Source: Isurus oxyrinchus (taxonomy: Eukaryota). From it: a stretch of 64,000 bases of DNA. The notes beneath the pieces were generated by a model that saw nothing but the letters and a program-made list of their open reading frames with translations, searched no databases and had not been told where the DNA came from. A program made the translations under genes and the position numbers. Shown one piece after another: positions 38,797-61,281 of this stretch (positions are counted from its first letter, which is position 1; each line of letters begins with the position of its first letter). The DNA lies in contig JANJGN010000014.1 in the NCBI GenBank assembly GCA_026770705.1, positions 24,862,001-24,926,000 on the forward strand, in the 5' to 3' direction.

Positions 38797-40170
38797 CAAA
38801 AGCAAAAAACTGCGGATGCTGGAAATCCAAAACAAAAACAAAAATACCTGGAAAAACTCAGCAGGTCTGGCAGCATCTGCGGAGAAGAACATAGTTAACG
38901 TTTCGAGTCTGAATGACTCTTCAACAGAACTAAGTAAAAATAGAAGAGAGGTGAAACATAAACTGGATTAACGGGGGTGTGACAAGGAGAGCTGGATAGA
39001 GGGCCAGTGAAAAATGTCACAGACAAAAGGACAAAAAGGTGTTGAGGGTGGTGATATTATCTAAGGAATGTGCTAATTAAGGGTAGAAAGCAGGACAAGC
39101 AAGGTACAGATAGCTCTAGTGGGGGTGGGGTGGGGTGAAGGAATCAAAAAAGGCTAAAAAGGTAGAGATAAAACAACGGATGGAAATACATTTAAAAATA
39201 ATGGAAATAGGTGGGATAAGAAAAATATATATAAATTATTGGGAAAAAAAAGGGGGGGGGATCGGAAAGGGGACGGGGATGAAGGAGAGAGTTCATGATC
39301 TAAAATTGTTGAACTCAATATTCAGTCTGGAAGGCTGTAAAGTGACTAGTCGGAAGATGAGGTGCTATTCCTCCAGTTTGCGTTGAGCTTCATTGGAACA
39401 ATGCAGCAGGCCAAGGACAGACATGTGGGCATGAGAGCAGGGTGGAATGTTGAAATGGCAAGCGACAGGGAGGTCTGGGTCATGCTTGAGGACAGACCGA
39501 AGGTGTTCTGCAAAGTGGTCACCCAGTCTGTGTTTGGTCTCTCCAATATAGAGGAAACCTCATTGGGAGCAGCGAATGCAGTAGACTAAATTGAGGGAAG
39601 TGCAAGTGAAATGCTGCTTCACTTGAAAGAAGTGTTCGGGCCCTTGGACGGTGAGGAGAGGGCAAGTAAAGGGGCAGGTGTTGCACCTTCTGCGGTTGCA
39701 TGGGAAGGTGCCATGGGAGGGGGTTGAGGTGTAGAGGGTGATGGAGGAGTGAACCAGGGTATCCCGGAGGAAATGATCCCTGCAGAATGCCGCCAGGGGG
39801 AAGGGAAGATGTGTTTGGTAGTGGCATCATGCTGGAGTTGGCAGAAATGGCAGAGGATGAGCCTTTGAATGCTGAGGCTGGTGGGGTGATAAGTGAGGAC
39901 AAGGAGGACCCTGTCATGGTTCTGGGAGGCAGAGGATTGTGTGAGGGCAGATGCGTGGGAGATGGGCCAGACATGGTTGAGGGCCCCGTCAACCACGGTG
40001 GGTGGAAAACCTCGGTTAAGGAAGAAGGAAGACATATGAGAGGAACTGTTTTTGAAAGTGGCATCATCAGAACAGATGTGACGGAGGCGAAGGAACTGAA
40101 AGAATGGGATGGAGTCCTTACAGGAAGCGGGGTGTGAGAAGCTGTACTCGAGGTAGCTGTGGGAGACGGT
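38797..40170 (-). mobile_element. Penelope-like element, 5'-truncated (RT C-terminus, GIY-YIG, 3' tail)
   Basis: MSSFFLNRGFPPTVVD...VLTYHPTS; same family as 53844-58003. Confidence 0.9.
38893..38931 (-). ncRNA. Minimal hammerhead ribozyme motif
   Basis: AGTT-CTGTTGA-A-GAGTC-ATTCA-GACTC-GAAAC-GTT-AACT. Confidence 0.75.
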
Positions 40171-40478
40171 CGGTTAGCTAGAGCATTGTTGGATGTCAAG
40201 GACGGAAGGGCTGGATAGAGCTCAAGTGATGGGCCTTAGGGAAATCAAGGTTCGTTTTGACGGTTCAGCAGTTATCCAATCTCTGTATGACTTACCAAAC
40301 ATAAAGGAGATCACACTTTCAGCAGCAACACAGAATAATCAATTAGGACAAGTGTGGGAAGCAACAAAGTGACAGGTGTTTCACGTGTTGTAGTTACAAA
40401 ATTTGTCTCAAGAAGAGATGCATGTAAGGAAGATGGTTATAAGCAATTTTAAACACCCAAGCTCTTTTTGACACTTAC

Positions 40479-50197: not shown

Positions 50198-51282
50198 ACC
50201 AAAGATACTGCAGATGCTGGAACTCTGAAATAAAAGCTGAAAATGCTGGAAAAATTCAGCAGGACCGATGGCATCTGTGGAGAGAGAAACAGAGTTAATG
50301 TTTTGAGTCTGTATGACCCTTCTTCAGAGCTACACCGAAGGTGTTGCGCAAAGTGGTCACCCAGTCATTTGGTCTCCCCAAAGTAGAGGAGACTGCACTG
50401 GGAGCAGCGAATGCAGTAAACTAAATTGAAGGAGGTACAAGTGAAGCGCTGCTTCACCTGAAAGGAGTGTTTGGGCTCTTACACGGTGAGGAAGGAGGAG
50501 GTAGAGGAGCAGGTGTTGCACCTTCTGCGATTCCATGGGAAGGTGTCATGGGAAGGGGATGAGGTATTGGGAGTGATGGAGGAATAGACCAGGATGTCCT
50601 GGAGGTAATGGTCCTTACGGAATGCTACAGGGCAGTGAGAGGAAGATGTGTTTGGTGGTGGCATCATTCTGGAAATGGCAAAGGATGATCCTTTGAACAT
50701 GGAGACAGGTGGGGTCAAAAGTGAGAACAAGGGGGGACCCTTTCATGGTTCTGGGAGAGAGGGGAAGGTGTGAGGACAGAGGCGCGGGAGATGGGTTGGA
50801 CACGGTTGAGGGCCCTGTCAACCACAATGGGTGGGAAACCTCGGTTAAAGAAGGAGGAAGACATGTCAGAAGCGCCGTTTTGGAAAATGGCATCATTGGA
50901 ACAGATGCAACGGAGGCGAAGGAACTGAGAGAATGAGATGGAGCCCTTGAGGAAAGCAAGAAGTGAGGAGCTGTAGTCAAGGTAGTTGTGGGAGTCAGTG
51001 GGCTTGTAATGAATATTAGTGGACAGTCTATCACCAGAAATGGAGACTGAGGTGTCAAGGAAGGGAAGGGACGTGTCGGAGATGGACCATGTGAAGGTGA
51101 GAGAGGGATGGAAATTGGAAGCAAAATTGATAAATTTTTCCAGATCCAGATGAGAGCATGAAGCAGCACTGAAACAGTCGTCGATGTACCAAAAAAGCGT
51201 TGTGGGAGGGGGGCTTGAGTAGGACTGGAACAAGGGATGGTCCACATACCCCATAATGAGACCGGCATAACTGGGACCCAAG
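50198..51282 (-). mobile_element. Older Penelope-like element fragment with internal deletion
   Basis: GPSYAGLIMGYV, WYIDDCF, LPFLD, YKPTDSHNYL; 3' tail at 50198-50331. Confidence 0.88.
50293..50331 (-). ncRNA. Decayed minimal hammerhead motif
   Basis: AGCT-CTGAAGA-A-GGGTC-ATACA-GACTC-AAAAC-ATT-AACT (GAAA changed to AAAA). Confidence 0.55.
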
Positions 51283-52665: not shown

Positions 52666-53940
52666 AAAACCTAATTTCTCCAAATGACAATGAACCAGAA
52701 GGGTAAAGAAGCAGAAAATGATGAAGAGGGTGTCCAGCAAGGAGGACTGGCTTCACACAGTGACTCCAACAGACTGGTTTCATCTGGCTGAGAGATCCTT
52801 CTTCCATGAAAAGGAATCTAACTAGCCTCGCTCACCTCCCAGAAGTGGATTGAGCAACACATGGCTAAGTTACAGTGTACAGGAGAAGGGAAGAACGAAA
52901 AGGAAATATTTTAGATTGTGTTCTTCTTTATAATTTACTTCTCAAATCAATAAGATGCTTAAACATTGATTATCACTGACTTATTAAGCATACCGAAAAT
53001 GAATAGTACTTAAAACATACGCCTAAAGAATAATACTTACAAATGAACCTTACTGGTTTAGTTAAGGGACTTTCGGTTCACAGCTCCAAGCTTAGTATTA
53101 CAGATTGTTGAGACCTTATTGGTCCTAGGTATATGTACAAACTCCCACTTTTTAAAGTGGGAGTTCTACATGACAATCCACGATTAACTGCATAATGTAG
53201 AAACATAAATTTGACTTTAATTTCGTACCAGTCCACCCCTTGCTTCCATGAAAATTCCAATTAAAAAGCATGATGTATACCCAGATGTTTCTTCTGCAGT
53301 ACCAATTGCTTTTCTGTACTTGCTACCAATTAATTAAAGTTCTCTGAAATATGAATCACTATGCACTTGCATGTCTTTAAATTGGAATTACAAAGTGACA
53401 AAAACAGCCTTAAGGCAGTTTAGTGGTCACTGCAGCTAAATTGACCTGCTTAACAGGCAAAAGCTAATGGTTACTATTACCACAACAAAAGAGATTTCAA
53501 TAACAGTACAATATTAGCAGACCTCAGAAACTGGATTTGTACACAATTTTCAATAACAAGACATTGCTAGAATAAAGATAAGAGCAATGGTTGCAAGCTC
53601 ACTTGATCACTTGCTTCCTGCAGTGTGCAGGGCAGTTGTCCCTATGATTAAATATCCGATTTTCTTAATAAAACTGTGATAATCCTTTCCTTACAAAAGG
53701 AAAGGAAACAGGAACTGTGAAACAATCAAGGCTTATGTTGCTCTCAATGTCAGTGAAGGAGAAGGGTGCTATGAAAGTCACATTCATTCCAGATAGTTCA
53801 CCCCAGAACACAAAATTAAACCAAATAATTAGAATTCAAGTATAAAAACCAAGAAAACTGCGGATGCTGGAAATCCAAAACAAAAACAGAATTACCTGGA
53901 AAAACTCAGCAGGTCTGGCAGCATCGGCGGAGAAGAAAAG

Positions 53941-53979
53941 AGTTGACGTTTCGAGTCCTCATGACCCTTCAACAGAACT
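53941..53979 (-). ncRNA. Minimal hammerhead ribozyme motif (type I), best-preserved copy
   Basis: AGTT-CTGTTGA-A-GGGTC-ATGAG-GACTC-GAAAC-GTC-AACT; predicted cut between 53945 and 53944. Confidence 0.82.
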
Positions 53980-54372
53980 TGATTTCGAGTCCAAGAAAGA
54001 GTTGAAATATAAGCTGGTTTAAGGTGGGTGTGTGGGGGGGCGGAGAGAGAGTGAGAGACAGAGGTGCTTGTGTAGACAAACAAGCAGTGATAGAAGCAGA
54101 TCATCAAAAGATGTCAGCGACAATGGTACAAAAGAACACATAGGTGTTAAAGTTAAAGTTGGTGATATTATCTAAACGAATGTGCTAATTAAGAATGGAT
54201 GGTAGGGCACTCAAGGTACAGCTCTAGTGGGGGTGGGGGGAACATAAAAGATTTTAAAATATTTAAAAATAATGGAAATAGGTGGGAAAAGAAAAATCTA
54301 TAAAATTTATAGGGAAAAAAAAGGGAAAAAAAAGGGGGAAACAGAAAGGGGGTGGGGATGGGGGAGGGAGCT

Positions 54373-55508
54373 CACGACCTAAAGTTATTGAATTCAATAT
54401 TCAGACCGGAAGGCTGTAAGGTGCCTAGTCGGAAGATGAGGTGTTATTCCTCCAGTTTGCGTTGGGCTTCACTGGAACAATGCAGTAAGCCAAGGACAGA
54501 CATGTGGGCAAGAGAGCAGGGTGGAGTGTTAAAATGGCAAGCGACAGGGAGGTTTGGGTCATTCTTGCGGACAGACCGCAGGTGTTCTGCAAAGCGGTCG
54601 CCCAGTTTACGTTTGGTCTCTCCAATGTAGAGGAGACCACATTGGGAGCAACGAATGCAGTAGACTAAGTTGGGGGAAATGCAAGTGAAATGCTGCTTCA
54701 CTTGAAAGGAGTGTTTGAGCCCTTGGACGGTGAGGAGAGAGGAAGTGAAGGGGCAGGTGTTACATCTTTTGCATGGGCATGGGGTGGTGCCATAGGAGGG
54801 GGTTGAGGAGTAGGGGGTGATGGAGGAGTGGACCAGGGTGTCCCGGAGGGAGCGATCCCTACGGAATGCCGATAAGGGGGGTGAAGGGAAGATGTGTTTG
54901 GTGGTGGCATCATGCTGGAGTTGGCGGAAATGGCGGAGGATGATCCTTTGAATGCGGAGGCTGGTGGGGTGATAAGTGAGGACAAGGGGGACCCTATCAT
55001 GTTTCTGGGAGGGAGGAGAAGGCGTGAGGGCGGATGCGCGGGAGATGGGCCGGACACGGTTGAGGGCCCTGTCAACGACCGTGGGTGGAAAACCTCGGTT
55101 AAGGAAGAAGGAGGACATGTCAGAGGAACCGTTTTTGAAGGTAGCATCATCGGAACAGATGCGACGAAGGCGAAGGAACTGGGAGAATGGGATGGAGTCC
55201 TTACAGGAAGCGGGGTGTGAGGAGCTGTAGTCGAGGTAGCTGTGAGGGTCGGTGGGTTTGTAATGGATATTGGTGGACAGTCTATCACCAGAGATTGAGA
55301 CAGAGTGGTCAAGGAAGGGAAGGGAAGTGTCAGAGATGGACCACGTGAAAATGATGGAGGGGTGGAGATTGGAAGCAAAATTAATAAATTTTTCCAAGTC
55401 CCGACGAGAGCATGAAGCGGCACCGAAGTAATCATCGATGTACCGGAGAAAAAGTTGTGGAAGGGGGCCGGGGTAGGACTGCAACAAGGAATGTTCCACA
55501 TACCCCAA
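54373..55508 (-). pseudogene. PLE RT C-terminus + GIY-YIG ORF (inverted arm), premature stop at 54444
   Basis: RYIDD...PCPCKRCNTC...VYCIRCSQCGLLYIGETKRKLGDRFAEH...RKLEE*. Confidence 0.9.
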
Positions 55509-57531
55509 AAATACCCCAGTTCAACGGATCCTTTTACCCATCTCCAATATTCTCCCTCCACCTGGACCCCTCCCTCTGGATTCTTACCTTCTCTTGATCT
55601 TTTCATTGAGAACTGTCGGCGCGACATTAGTCGTCTCAATTTCTCTGCTCCTCTCACCCATTCTAACCTGTCTCTCTCTGAACTTACTGCACTCCATTCT
55701 CTCAGGTCCAACCCTGACATTGTCATCAAACCCGCTGACAAGGGTGGTGCTGTTGTTGTCTGGCGCACTGACCTCTACCTCGCGGAGGCTGAGCGTCAAC
55801 TCGCAGACACTTCCTCCTACCTCTCCCTGGACCATGACCCCACCACTGAACATCAAGCCATTGTTTCCAGGACTGTCACTGACCTCATCTCCTCTGGGGA
55901 TCTCCCTCCCACAGCTTCCAACCTGATAGTCGCCCAACCTCGGACGGCCCGCTTCTATCTCCTACCCAAAATCCACAAACAGAACTGCCCCGGTAGACCG
56001 ATCGTCTCAGCTTGCTCCTGCCCCACAGAACTCATTTCTCGTTATCTTGACTCCCTTCTCTCTCCCCTTGTCCAGTCCCTTCCCACCTACATCCGTGATT
56101 CCTCTGACACCTTACGTCACATCAACAATTTCCAGTTCCCTGGCTCCAACCGCTTCCTCTTCACCATGGACGTCCAATCCCTCTACACCTCCATCCCCCA
56201 CCAGGATGGTCTGAGGGCCCTTAGCTTCTTCCTCGAACAGAGGCCCGAACAATCCCCATCCACCACTACTCTCCTCCGTCTGGCTGAACTTGTTCTCACG
56301 TTGAACAATTTCTCCTTCAACTCCTCTCACTTTCTCCAAATAAAAGGTGTGGCTATGGGTACCCGCATGGGCCCCAGCTATGCCTGTCTCTTTATGGGGT
56401 ATGTGGAACATTCCTTGTTGCAGTCCTACCCCGGCCCCCTTCCACAACTTTTTCTCCGGTACATCGATGATTACTTCGGTGCCGCTTCATGCTCTCGTCG
56501 GGACTTGGAAAAATTTATTAATTTTGCTTCCAATCTCCACCCCTCCATCATTTTCACGTGGTCCATCTCTGACACTTCCCTTCCCTTCCTTGACCTCTCT
56601 GTCTCAATCTCTGGTGATAGACTGTCCACCAATATCCATTACAAACCCACCGACTCCCACAGCTACCTCGACTACAGCTCCTCACACCCCGCTTCCTGTA
56701 AGGACTCCATCCCATTCTCCCAGTTCCTTCGCCTTCGTCGCATCTGTTCCGATGATGCTACCTTCAAAAACGGTTCCTCTGACATGTCCTCCTTCTTCCT
56801 TAACCGAGGTTTTCCACCCACGGTCGTTGACAGGGCCCTCAACCGTGTCCGGCCCATCTCCCGCGCATCCGCCCTCACGCCTTCTCCTCCCTCCCAGAAA
56901 CATGATAGGGTCCCCCTTGTCCTCACTTATCACCCCACCAGCCTCCGCATTCAAAGGATCATCCTCCGCCATTTCCGCCAACTCCAGCATGATGCCACCA
57001 CCAAACACATCTTCCCTTCACCCCCCCTTATCGGCATTCCGTAGGGATCGCTCCCTCCGGGACACCCTGGTCCACTCCTCCATCACCCCCTACTCCTCAA
57101 CCCCCTCCTATGGCACCACCCCATGCCCACGCAAAAGATGTAACACCTGCCCCTTCACTTCCTCTCTCCTCACCGTCCAAGGGCCCAAACACTCCTTTCA
57201 AGTGAAGCAGCATTTCACTTGCATTTCCCCCAACTTAGTCTACTGCATTCGTTGCTCCCAATGTGGTCTCCTCTAGATTGGAGAGACCAAACGTAAACTG
57301 GGCGACCGCTTTGCAGAACACCTGCGGTCTGTCCGCAAGAATGACCCAAACCTCCCTGTCACTTGCCATTTTAACACTCCACCCTGCTCTCTTGCCCACA
57401 TGTCTGTCCTTGGCTTACTGCATTGTTCCAGTGAAGCCCAACGCAAACTGGAGGAACACCACCTCATCTTCCGACTAGGCACCTTACAGCCTTCCGGTCT
57501 GAATATTGAATTCAATAACTTTAGGTCGTGA
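55509..57531 (+). pseudogene. PLE reverse transcriptase + GIY-YIG ORF, 5'-truncated, frameshift ~57025, stop 57274-57276
   Basis: IKPADKGGAVVV, YLLPKIHK, GRPIVS, MDVQSLYTSIP, GVAMGTRMGP, RYIDD, LPFLD; VYCIRC..CGLL*IGET, HF, GLN. Confidence 0.93.
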
Positions 57532-57930
57532 GCTCCCTCCCCCATCCCCACCCCCTTTCTGTTTCCCCCTTTTTTTTTTTCCCCTTTTTTTTCCCTATAA
57601 ATTTTATAGATTTTTCTTTTCCCACCTATTTCCATTATTTTTAAATATTTTAAAATCTTTTATGCTCCCCCCACCCCCACTAGAGCTGTACCTTGAGTGC
57701 CCTACCATCCATTCTTAATTAGCACATTCGTTTAGATAATATCACCAACTTTAACTTTAACACCTATGTGTTCTTTTGTACCATTGTCGCTGACATCTTT
57801 TGATGATCTGCTTCTATCACTGCTTGTTTGTCTACACAAGCACCTCTGTCTCTCACTCTCTCTCCGCCCCCCCCCCACACACACACCTTAAACCAGCTTA
57901 TATTTCAACTCTTTCTTGGACTCGAAATCA

Positions 57931-57969
57931 AGTTCTGTCGAAGGGTCATGAGGACTCGAAACGTCAACT
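57931..57969 (+). ncRNA. Minimal hammerhead ribozyme motif
   Basis: AGTT-CTGTCGA-A-GGGTC-ATGAG-GACTC-GAAAC-GTC-AACT. Confidence 0.8.
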
Positions 57970-58159
57970 CTTTTCTTCTCCGCCGATGCTGCCAGACCTG
58001 CTGAGAATTCAAGTATGGTTGGACAAAATCCATAGCCAGTTGGGATCAGATTTGTAAAAATGGAAACCAAAGCTGCCCAAATGAATACAGCTTGCATTAT
58101 AAATGAACTTCAGAATGATCACCCTCATGGATTAAGTAAATGGAGAATTTGAAACCAAC

Positions 58160-58299
58160 CTTATCAGTGCCAGGTATTGTCTCAAAAGAGCTAAGTTGGT
58201 ATCTTGTCTCCCTCATGTAACGCTCTTTCTCTGGACACATATCCAAACAGGTCCCCACCACAGCTTTAGCCTTCTCCAACTCAGTTCTTTTCACTCGTG
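58160..58299 (-). CDS. MCM3AP: MCM3AP exon ([47 protein letters not shown])
   Basis: SAC3/GANP N-terminal motif GTCxDMCPExER; TAG acceptor, GTTGGT donor. Confidence 0.96.
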
Positions 58300-59339
58300 C
58301 TATGGGCACAGAAGAATCAGATAAAAATAATATTTTTTGCTCTGCACATATGAATCATGCTCAATGCCAGCACTAGGAAATGACACTGTCCTTAAATGTT
58401 AATCACCATCTCAGGTTTTCTTTCAACTTAAATTCAATGAACACATTTTAAATCCTTCGTTCACCCCCTCAAATCCTTTATTCATCTTCGCATGTTGCAA
58501 CTCTTAATTAATTCCATCATGATGTTACTTTATTCTATTTGCATAAAAAGCTAGCAAAACATCTCAAAAACGTCTCTTCAGTCTGGTAGTGACATGGAGA
58601 AGTTATTTGAAAAGTTCTTCACTTAATTTCCCATAAACTAGGCTTGAACAACAATGAATCAATTAAAAGGCCATCCTTAAACTACAACTTCGGTCATTGG
58701 TATTTGTTGCAGTAGTTTCCAAATGCTTCACTGCCAGCCAGGGCAATGGGTGAAGGAAAACTGCACTCCTCCCTCCAGCTACAACCAACCCATTCCCATT
58801 CAGCCTGAGGCCCCTGTACAATCGCTTCTCGACCCAAGAAGCATTCCTTCCTTCACACCCAGAAAAGGCATGGTCATTTCCGCAGCTATTAGGGTTCCAA
58901 GCCTAACAACAGATGAAGGTAAGAAAAAAAGAGAGTGCATGCGACAGAGAGAGAGAAAATGCATGCCAAATATACAGAAAAACATAAGTATCAGAGGCAG
59001 AAGGAATAAGTGAATTGTAGAAGGGTGAGAAATGGTAAAAAAGCAAAAAGGAGACATCATGAAAGAGGGAATGAGGCAGAATGCAAAAAATGGAGACAAA
59101 TTGAGCTACCTAGACAATGAAAAAAAAGTGTACAAGAACAGAAAACAGAGGAATAGAGAGAAGAGGAAAAAGAAATTAAAGAATGGAAAAAGCACAAAGA
59201 CAACAAATTAATTCACTGTCAACGGGCAGAAAATCTAGCTCTTGGACAAATCATTTTTATAATTCTACAGGGAATGCAATTGGAGATCAATTAGTACCTT
59301 AAAAATAATGAACTTCGCCAAGAAATGATGCATCATTAC

Positions 59340-59545: not shown

Positions 59546-59864
59546 CTGCAGAGCAAATCTAATGAACATCTGATTCTGTTTAAAACCCCAGTTCTTATCT
59601 TATTTCTCTCCTCACTTAGCCCCTCACATTCAATTTGTTCATAACAGAAAGGGATGGATCATGCAGCCTCACAGTGCATCACTTATGAATGAACCCAACT
59701 ACACAGTGTCACAGGATGCACAAACATTCAGGACTGACAAACTCACCCAGTGTCAGCCAGGATCCACACCTGTAACAGATTGACAAACTCACCCAATAAC
59801 AGAACAAAAACAGAATTACCTGGAAAAACTCAGCAGGCCTGGCAGCATCGGCGGAGAAGAAAAG

Positions 59865-59903
59865 AGTTGACGTTTCGAGTCCTCATGACCCTTCAACAGA
59901 ACT
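59865..59903 (-). ncRNA. Minimal hammerhead ribozyme motif
   Basis: Identical to 53941-53979. Confidence 0.82.
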
Positions 59904-60869
59904 GGGTGAATCCAAGGAGAGGGGTGAAATATAAGCTGGTTTAAGGAGTGGGGCGGGGGTGGGAGGGGGGGGGGGGGGGGGGAGGTGTGGAAAGAAGTGG
60001 AGGGGGGTGGTGTGGTTGTAGGGACAAGCAAGCAGTGATAGGAGCAGATCATCAAAAGATGTCACAGACAAAAGAACACAGAGGTGTTAAAGTTGATGAT
60101 ATTATCTAAACGAATGTGCTAATTAAGAATGGATGGTATGGCACTCAAGGTACAGCTCTAGTGGGGGTGGGGGTCATAAAAGATTTAAAAATAATGGAAA
60201 TAGGTGGGAAGAGAAAAATCTATATAATTTATTGGAAAAAAAGCAAAAGGAAGGGGGAAGAAACAGAAAGGGGGTGGGGATGAGGGAAGGAGTTCAAGAT
60301 CTAAAGTTGTTGAATTCAATATTCAGTCCGGAAGGCTGTAAAGTGCCTAGTCGGAAGATGAGGTGCTGTTCCTCCAGTTTGCGCTGGGCTTCACTCGAAC
60401 AATGCAGCAAGCCAACGACAGACATGTGGGCAAGAGAGCAGGGTGGAGTGTTAAAATGGCAAGCGACAGGGAGGTTTGGGTCATTCTTGCGGACAGACCG
60501 CAGGTGTTCTGCAAAGCTGTCGCCCAGTTTACGTTTGGTCTCTTTTGTTTTTTCCAATAATTTATATAGATTTTTCTTTTCCCACCTATTTCCATTATTT
60601 TTAAATCTTTTATGCCCCCCACCCCCACTAGAGCTATACCTTGAGTGCCATACCATCCATTCTTAATTAGCATATTCGTTTAGATAATATCACCAACTTC
60701 AACACCTCTGTGTTCTTTTGTCTGTGACATCTTTTGATTATCTGCTCCTATCACTGCTTGCTTGTCCCTACAACCACACCACCCCCCTCCACTTCTCTCC
60801 CCCCACCCAACCGCTCCCTCTCCCAACCTTAAACCAGCTTATATTTCACCCCTCTCCTTGGATTCACCC

Positions 60870-60908
60870 AGTTCTGTTGAAGGGTCATGAGGACTCAAAA
60901 CGTCAACT
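60870..60908 (+). ncRNA. Minimal hammerhead motif with G12A change (likely inactive)
   Basis: AGTT-CTGTTGA-A-GGGTC-ATGAG-GACTC-AAAAC-GTC-AACT. Confidence 0.65.
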
Positions 60909-61281
60909 CTTTTCTTCTCCGCCGATGCTGCCAGACCTGCTGAGTTTTTCCAGGTAATTCTGTTTTTGTTTTGATTTCCAGCATCCGCAGTTTTTTGTTT
61001 TTATCACCCAATAAGAGAGTCCATCCCATTGAAGCTAATCTTAAATAGAGTCAATGTATTTTGTGAATTGAAATTAAAACTTCATGAGCACAGTAAGCAC
61101 AGGGTATGATAACAATAAGGCAAAGGAAAACTTGTTTATTGTTTCTTGTACCCAGCAATACTGAAAAATAATTCTCACTGGCCTTTATCACAGAGGTTAA
61201 TAGAAAAACAAAATACTACAGATGTTGGAAATCTGAACTAAATACAGAAAACATAGGCAGCATCTGTGGAGAGAGAAATTG

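Follow-up and report, generated by a model that had tools for sequence, protein, structure and literature searches.

A tails-out Penelope-like element within one target-site duplication in Isurus oxyrinchus, and the pairing of unequal ends across its family

Introduction

A 64-kb stretch of contig JANJGN010000014.1 of Isurus oxyrinchus (the window) contains two oppositely oriented, 5'-truncated copies of a Penelope-like element (PLE) that face each other with their truncated 5' ends and are enclosed by a single target-site duplication (TSD). We think it probable that this structure is one insertion of a young Neptune-type PLE, in which a dimeric complex of reverse transcriptase (RT) and endonuclease (EN) primed from both cut strands of the target. 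That a single event and two-strand priming jointly account for the structure is well supported, with little room left for doubt. For the template, the odds lie between even and a modest preference for one RNA over two.

The head-to-head layout within one TSD is already known for PLEs, and this locus, though clean and large, is an ordinary case. The interest lies in the statistics of its family, which constrain how PLE inversions and the one-sided tail form; the published accounts, in the text available, call the formation of both undefined in the PLE cycle. These statistics favour two-ended priming with a fixed pairing of a long and a short end over fold-back or hammerhead pairing. Additionally, about half of the family insertions generate inverted repeats that can reach several kb, a practical concern when genomes are assembled and annotated.

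Results

Architecture of the insertion

The two 13-bp copies of the TSD lie on the plus strand at 53831..53843 and 58004..58016. The window has no copy of the 13-mer, AGAATTCAAGTAT, other than the two starting at 53831 and 58004, and the match between them is not extendable. The last 2 nt of the left copy and the first 2 nt of the right copy match the element too, a primer-template match (priming microhomology) of 2 nt at each end. The left arm is a 1664-nt copy on the minus strand (53844..55507, its edge set against other family copies) that carries the end of the RT, the linker, a GIY-YIG endonuclease, the 3' region, a hammerhead motif and a long tail. The right arm, 2490 nt on the plus strand (55514..58003), includes the RT core and ends early, without the tail; its portion at 55514-56394 (+) has no mirror in the left arm. 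Aligned over 1615 columns (55511-53905 against 56391-58005), the arms show 13 mismatches and 8 gap columns, the latter in 3 homopolymer runs. Since one of the mismatches is the junction base 55508, the arms are separated by 12 substitutions.

Comparison with other family copies places a 6-nt insert between the arms (55508..55513). ATACCCCA is present twice across the join, at 55500 and 55511, and CCCCA is common to both truncation points; a slip on the template while the ends were joined likely produced the insert. The two outer ends differ: the 3' tail of the left arm is 61 nt longer than that of the right. Measured from the hammerhead anchor, the left end lies at about +129 and the right at about +64/66, as they do in one surveyed copy, L040. 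An earlier reading made from the sequence only had described opposite truncated arms with their 3' ends outward, about 1.6 kb of duplicated sequence and one exact TSD, all of which the alignment bears out; its direct join gives way to the insert, and its equivalent outer ends to unequal ones.

The arms also carry the different lesions noted in that reading: a TAA stop in the left arm (54446-54444), a TAG stop in the right arm (57274-57276), and in the right arm a run of seven C near 57021-57027, a +1 C frameshift relative to the six C of the minus arm. The alleles behind both stops are found in at most 2 of about 80 copies, and the 7-C run recurs in 4 of 51. Because the stops are near-private and the extra C is recurrent, the differing lesions reflect later decay or homopolymer slippage and are no sign of two templates.

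The focal copy is unusual only by its size, which places it in the top tenth: a total of at least 4 kb is reached in 5 of 50 surveyed pairs, and two arms of at least 1.5 kb in 4 of 50. Arms truncated within 4 nt of one element position, a G run, were seen in the window (55507), in L016 (about 5121) and in L020 (about 4991), and the minus arm of L016 ends at the identical base to the focal minus arm. This cluster is possibly an RT pause site, although L016 and L020 were chosen by a query that covers the region.

Identity of the element and its hammerhead motif

The plus arm matches RVT_1 and the minus arm matches GIY-YIG. In L016 both domains lie in one uninterrupted 926-aa frame, where the GIY-YIG match has an E value of 9e-4, below the Pfam curated cut-off. 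Endonuclease-bearing (EN+) PLEs are recognized by a CCHH motif with two Cys between GIY and YIG and, in Neptune and Nematis, by a CX2-5CXXC linker (PMC8557442). By eye, the motif reads VY-CIRCSQC-GLL-YIG followed by two conserved-looking His, and the RT-EN linker in the plus arm reads C-PRKR-C-NT-C, that is, CX4CXXC. The layout of EN+ PLEs is present as well, with partial tandems in the survey described below and an inverted 5'-truncated copy with a one-sided tail in both window and survey. Tandem copies of the pseudo-long-terminal-repeat (pLTR) type, with a unit of about 3.3 kb, are found in L040, L073 and L016. By its motifs the element fits a young Neptune-type EN+ PLE, a placement that covers Neptune and Nematis alike.

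Each arm contains a putative minimal hammerhead-like motif with helix II and GAAACGUC, identified at the motif level only. In the left arm (53945..53975, minus strand) the core is CUGUUGA and GAAACGUC includes a palindromic ACGU; in the right arm (57935..57965, plus strand) the core is CUGUCGA. The consensus core of hammerheads is CUGANGA, and in this family the core is CUGUYGA in 141 of 144 copies; the palindromic ACGU is intact as GAAACGTC in most of 150 copies. An Rfam scan of the window gave no match at the gathering score, and the hammerhead and tail region folded no better than shuffled sequence (z 0.3-0.5). The earlier claim of a hammerhead at both outer ends thus holds for the motif in each arm, without backing from the scan or the folding. 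Neither arm begins at the ribozyme cut, their ends lying 101 and 38 nt past its putative position. By eye, the tail at 53844-53905 (-) comprises two similar units running from TTTCCAG to a T-rich TTTGTTTT, and the usual short and long ends of the family each coincide with the end of one unit.

Tails-out pairs across the family

The 5.0-Gb assembly matches an exact 33-nt pattern at 522 places. From 100 listed matches we took the first 60 distinct sites (contigs C1-C3), surveying 10 kb about each, and added 20 stretches from a second search with 40 matches listed, for a total of 80 loci plus the window. The share of tails-out pairs, which the sequence-only reading had proposed to survey, proved high: among 62 insertions with the pattern, 32 are complete tails-out pairs, 31 of them with a TSD of at least 10 bp. 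The rest comprise 3 that are inverted but cut by the fetched edge, 26 that are one-directional (12 with a TSD) and 1 unclassified. Weighting for the double sampling chance of pairs puts the inverted share at 46-49%. Bystander copies in the surveyed loci (n=30) include 9 complete pairs and 4 more that are inverted at the edge. The tails-out pair is therefore the ordinary form of family insertions in this genome. A TSD of 11-16 bp (mode 14) encloses 48 of the 52 complete pairs in the 80 loci and window, and mismatched flank pairs share at least 10 nt in only 2 of 2652 cases. The TSDs are 66% A+T, and no clear nick-site motif was found beyond this A+T richness.

Several surveyed loci are more complex. 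L001-L002 (G000:C131:524100-539750) is a tandem array of about four 3140-bp units with a common internal deletion; a short inverted arm closes the array, with a matching 14-mer located on one side. L014 is a similar array with rearranged short units. Both suggest multimeric templates. L035, L062 and L065, each within one TSD, are short arrays in which units of 330-450 nt, bearing a hammerhead and the start of the open reading frame, occur both in tandem and inverted; they are retrozyme-like derivatives. Finally, L007 (2628-8679), 6 kb of near-full copies arranged head to head, has a short end on both sides, lacks a TSD and shows 6 discordant marker sites; it is likely a composite or rearranged locus.

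Ends, centres and arm haplotypes

Outer ends in the family fall into a long class (about +127 to +133 from the hammerhead anchor) and a short class (mostly +87 to +95). A long end is combined with a short end in 50 of 52 pairs (binomial p 3e-13 against independent 50:50 choice), and the two exceptions both lack a TSD. One-directional copies with a TSD have a short end in 13 cases and a long end in 5. In L008, L031 and L013, a few bases of inverted tail sequence stand beside the far TSD of apparently one-directional insertions and look like aborted second arms.

In 18 of 38 simple two-arm insertions, including the focal one, the tail is missing from the arm that reaches further 5' and present on the other. 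Because the longer-5' arm lacks the tail that the other carries, neither arm in these 18 can be a copy of the other. Arms with the long tail do not differ in length from those with the short one (medians 742 and 736; Wilcoxon p 0.55). Among 45 scored centres, 27 have inserts; 10 of the 18 insert-free centres have at least 3 nt of microhomology, compared with about 4% at random.

At subfamily-informative non-CpG sites in 31 pairs, the two arms are discordant at 20 of 450 sites, whereas 80 would be expected if arms differed as much as the closest quarter of other copies. No discordant site is found in 20 of the 31 pairs, nor at any of the 22 sites of the focal pair.

Reads, assembly and empty site

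The left junction (53300-53870) is present in short-read contigs of two runs, possibly from the source sample, with 0 and 1 differences. These contigs extend 27 letters into the element, below the 31-letter bridging threshold. Over the element itself the contigs were dominated by copies of the family, and the centre junction was not among the pieces listed. The left flank, searched in the same assembly, matched the window locus and 7 short repeats, with no alternative haplotype among them. In organism B, about half of the flank words occur in its runs, but contigs from two of these runs, at 93% likeness, left the unique left flank almost uncovered; no orthologous site was seen there, which is not evidence of absence.

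Discussion

The single event claimed in the sequence-only reading is upheld by a TSD of family-typical length, by the combination of a long end with a short one, and by arms that share a subfamily haplotype. Its proposal that both target strands were primed at a 3' end agrees with the anatomy and with biochemistry: the PAc protein, from a Poseidon element of Anolis, cuts and extends both strands in vitro and starts reverse transcription at two adjacent internal sites that bound the tail, downstream of the hammerhead (PMC11167929). For the same protein, a dimer is predicted and hammerhead cleavage is dispensable (PMC11167929).

We propose the following sequence of events. The GIY-YIG domains would nick each of the two strands, the nicks lying about 13-14 bp apart so that two 3' overhangs form, and each 3'-OH would prime RT inside the RNA, downstream of an uncut hammerhead. 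One priming would occur at the distal start (about +129) and the other at the proximal start (usually about +92, here +64), with a single RNA, or two units of one tandem transcript, likely providing both starts. The cDNA in the lead would be displaced by the RT that follows. Both cDNAs would halt early, and complementarity of a few bases between their 3' ends (here CCCCA/TGGGG) would let them anneal, accompanied by a brief templated slip; fill-in and ligation would then yield the palindrome and the TSD. The stops and frameshift would have arisen afterwards or through homopolymer slippage.

A more general proposal, which we hold tentatively and at somewhat less than an even chance, is that PLE integration is intrinsically two-ended, one protein dimer on a single RNA priming both target strands. 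Such a dimer would occupy two neighbouring U-rich start motifs that resemble each other and are spaced by about 37 nt. Each inversion would have one long and one short end, the tail would be the gap between the start sites of the subunits, and apparently one-directional copies would be those whose second arm aborted after a few bases. No published counterpart to this model was found in a literature scope that left older subscription reviews outside. The strict pairing of ends, the non-nested arms and the arm haplotypes held in common open it to a direct test. If true, it would replace the self-priming account of head-to-head PLEs.

Several observations weigh against priming of both strands by one dimeric complex on one template. 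The focal right end, at +64/66, is shorter than the usual short end, and only 5 of 96 scored ends lie below +76. Among the 27 centre inserts, some probably reflect mutation close to the join. Discordance at 20 sites is more than the at most 7 that recurrent mutation would be expected to produce (14 against 6 when L007 is left out), and a minority of pairs may derive from two templates, conversion or hypermutable sites. Two RNAs transcribed from one active source locus would give concordant arms as well, and 2 of 59 other copies lie nearer to the focal arms than the two arms lie to one another. No empty site was seen in the same assembly or in the runs of organism B. Finally, PMC11167929 sees no difference in start site between top and bottom strands, and its available text gives no inversion model.

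The best surviving alternative, to which we give a small but real chance, is that both strands were primed from two separate RNAs, one per dimer subunit or in two complexes at one nick pair, the hammerhead being uninvolved. It would account for the few pairs (L038, L016, L070) in which informative sites are discordant more often than expected, and yields the 1.6-kb overlap without the need of strand displacement. However, two equivalent RNAs give no obvious reason for the pairing of long with short ends, and the absence of any discordant site in most of the pairs examined argues against it.

The sequence-only reading had raised the possibility of two RNAs joined by dimerisation of their hammerheads via a palindromic helix III, each priming one strand. 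The motif does have the palindromic ACGU of dimer-type minimal hammerheads, largely intact across the family, and dimer action has been proposed for such motifs in PMC4209133, which also describes opposite-strand pairs 100-700 bp apart. Nonetheless we regard this account as improbable, because the arm ends lie well past the putative cut, the pairing of ends is asymmetric where a symmetric RNA dimer does not predict asymmetric ends, Naiads and Chlamys elements have tandem or inverted insertions without canonical hammerheads (PMC8557442), and hammerhead mutants insert normally in vitro, in an assay that did not cover inversions or pairing (PMC11167929). The departure of the family core from the consensus also counts against it.

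Equally doubtful is self-priming or fold-back, in which a single cDNA (or an antisense template) folds over and serves as its own template, as suggested for head-to-head inversions of rotifer Penelope elements (PMC3846280). The CCCCA/TGGGG microhomology would permit such a snap-back, and one surveyed centre (L067) contains a hairpin insert. A cDNA fold-back requires nested arms, however, and in 18 of the 38 simple insertions, the focal copy among them, the arms are not nested; in addition, each outer end abuts the TSD and falls at a start site of the family. Least credible is a pair of independent insertions or a fold-back made in assembly, since the 12 substitutions between non-nested arms make a fold-back unlikely and the single exact TSD has the family-typical length, with the left junction present in short-read contigs and a like architecture in about half of the sampled copies, even though L007 shows that composites may exist and read support covers the left junction and neither the centre nor the right one.

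The adjacent inverted 5'-truncated copy and a one-sided 30-40-bp tail are typical of PLEs (Craig et al. 2021, PMC8557442). The focal insertion shares with the canonical EN+ unit described there the 5' truncation, the adjoining inverted truncated copy at the 5' end and the one-sided tail, and differs in lacking an upstream pLTR or tandem unit, in that both arms are long, and in a tail difference of 61 nt as opposed to 30-40. In Adineta vaga, Pen2a_Av and Pen2_Av have inverted pLTRs in one TSD, head-to-head being the most frequent form (PMC3846280), and Penelope of D. virilis has large inverted terminal repeats of variable size (PMC2377424). In both, as here, inverted repeats flank the whole insert within one TSD, with an optional tail on one arm. 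In contrast to them, the centre here is a join, by microhomology or insert, of two unrelated truncation points; the rotifer TSDs are 9-10 bp and not 11-16 bp, and the non-nested arms argue against the self-priming model proposed in PMC3846280. PAc, which shares the two starts and the cutting and extension of both strands, belongs to another PLE clade, Penelope/Poseidon, without the CX2-5CXXC linker, and the available text of PMC11167929 does not tie its two starts to the two arms of an inversion. The portions available of PMC9977147 and bioRxiv 10.64898/2026.07.22.740005 hold nothing on inversions.

The comparison with L1 drawn in the sequence-only reading is correct, and what it singles out is a known PLE pattern and not an unusual one. 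During L1 twin priming (see also bioRxiv 10.1101/2024.08.27.596794), both target strands act as primers, the cDNAs are joined internally and one TSD results, as here; the second primer anneals internally, and the inverted and non-inverted parts do not overlap. At the focal locus, by contrast, no more than about 65 nt separates the two starts, and 1.6 kb was copied into both arms. An L1-type twin-primed inversion was rejected as a candidate on this overlap and on the absence of a poly(A) tail.

Neighbourhood of the insertion

A SAC3/GANP-domain exon match lies at 58100-58354 (-), 84 nt to the right of the insertion, in what we take to be, most likely, the MCM3AP/GANP gene. Because this exon is so close, the focal insertion is likely intronic.

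A second tails-out insertion, of a related subfamily, older and smaller, lies 1.8 kb from the first (59789..61014). Its minus arm runs to about 60543 and its plus arm starts at 60545, with the short end on the left and the long end on the right; the arms differ at 18 of 426 aligned sites, and an 11-bp TSD, TCACCCAATAA, is found at 59789 and 61004. Older related PLE fragments, with about 80% identity, lie on the minus strand at 38798-40175 and 50334-51280.

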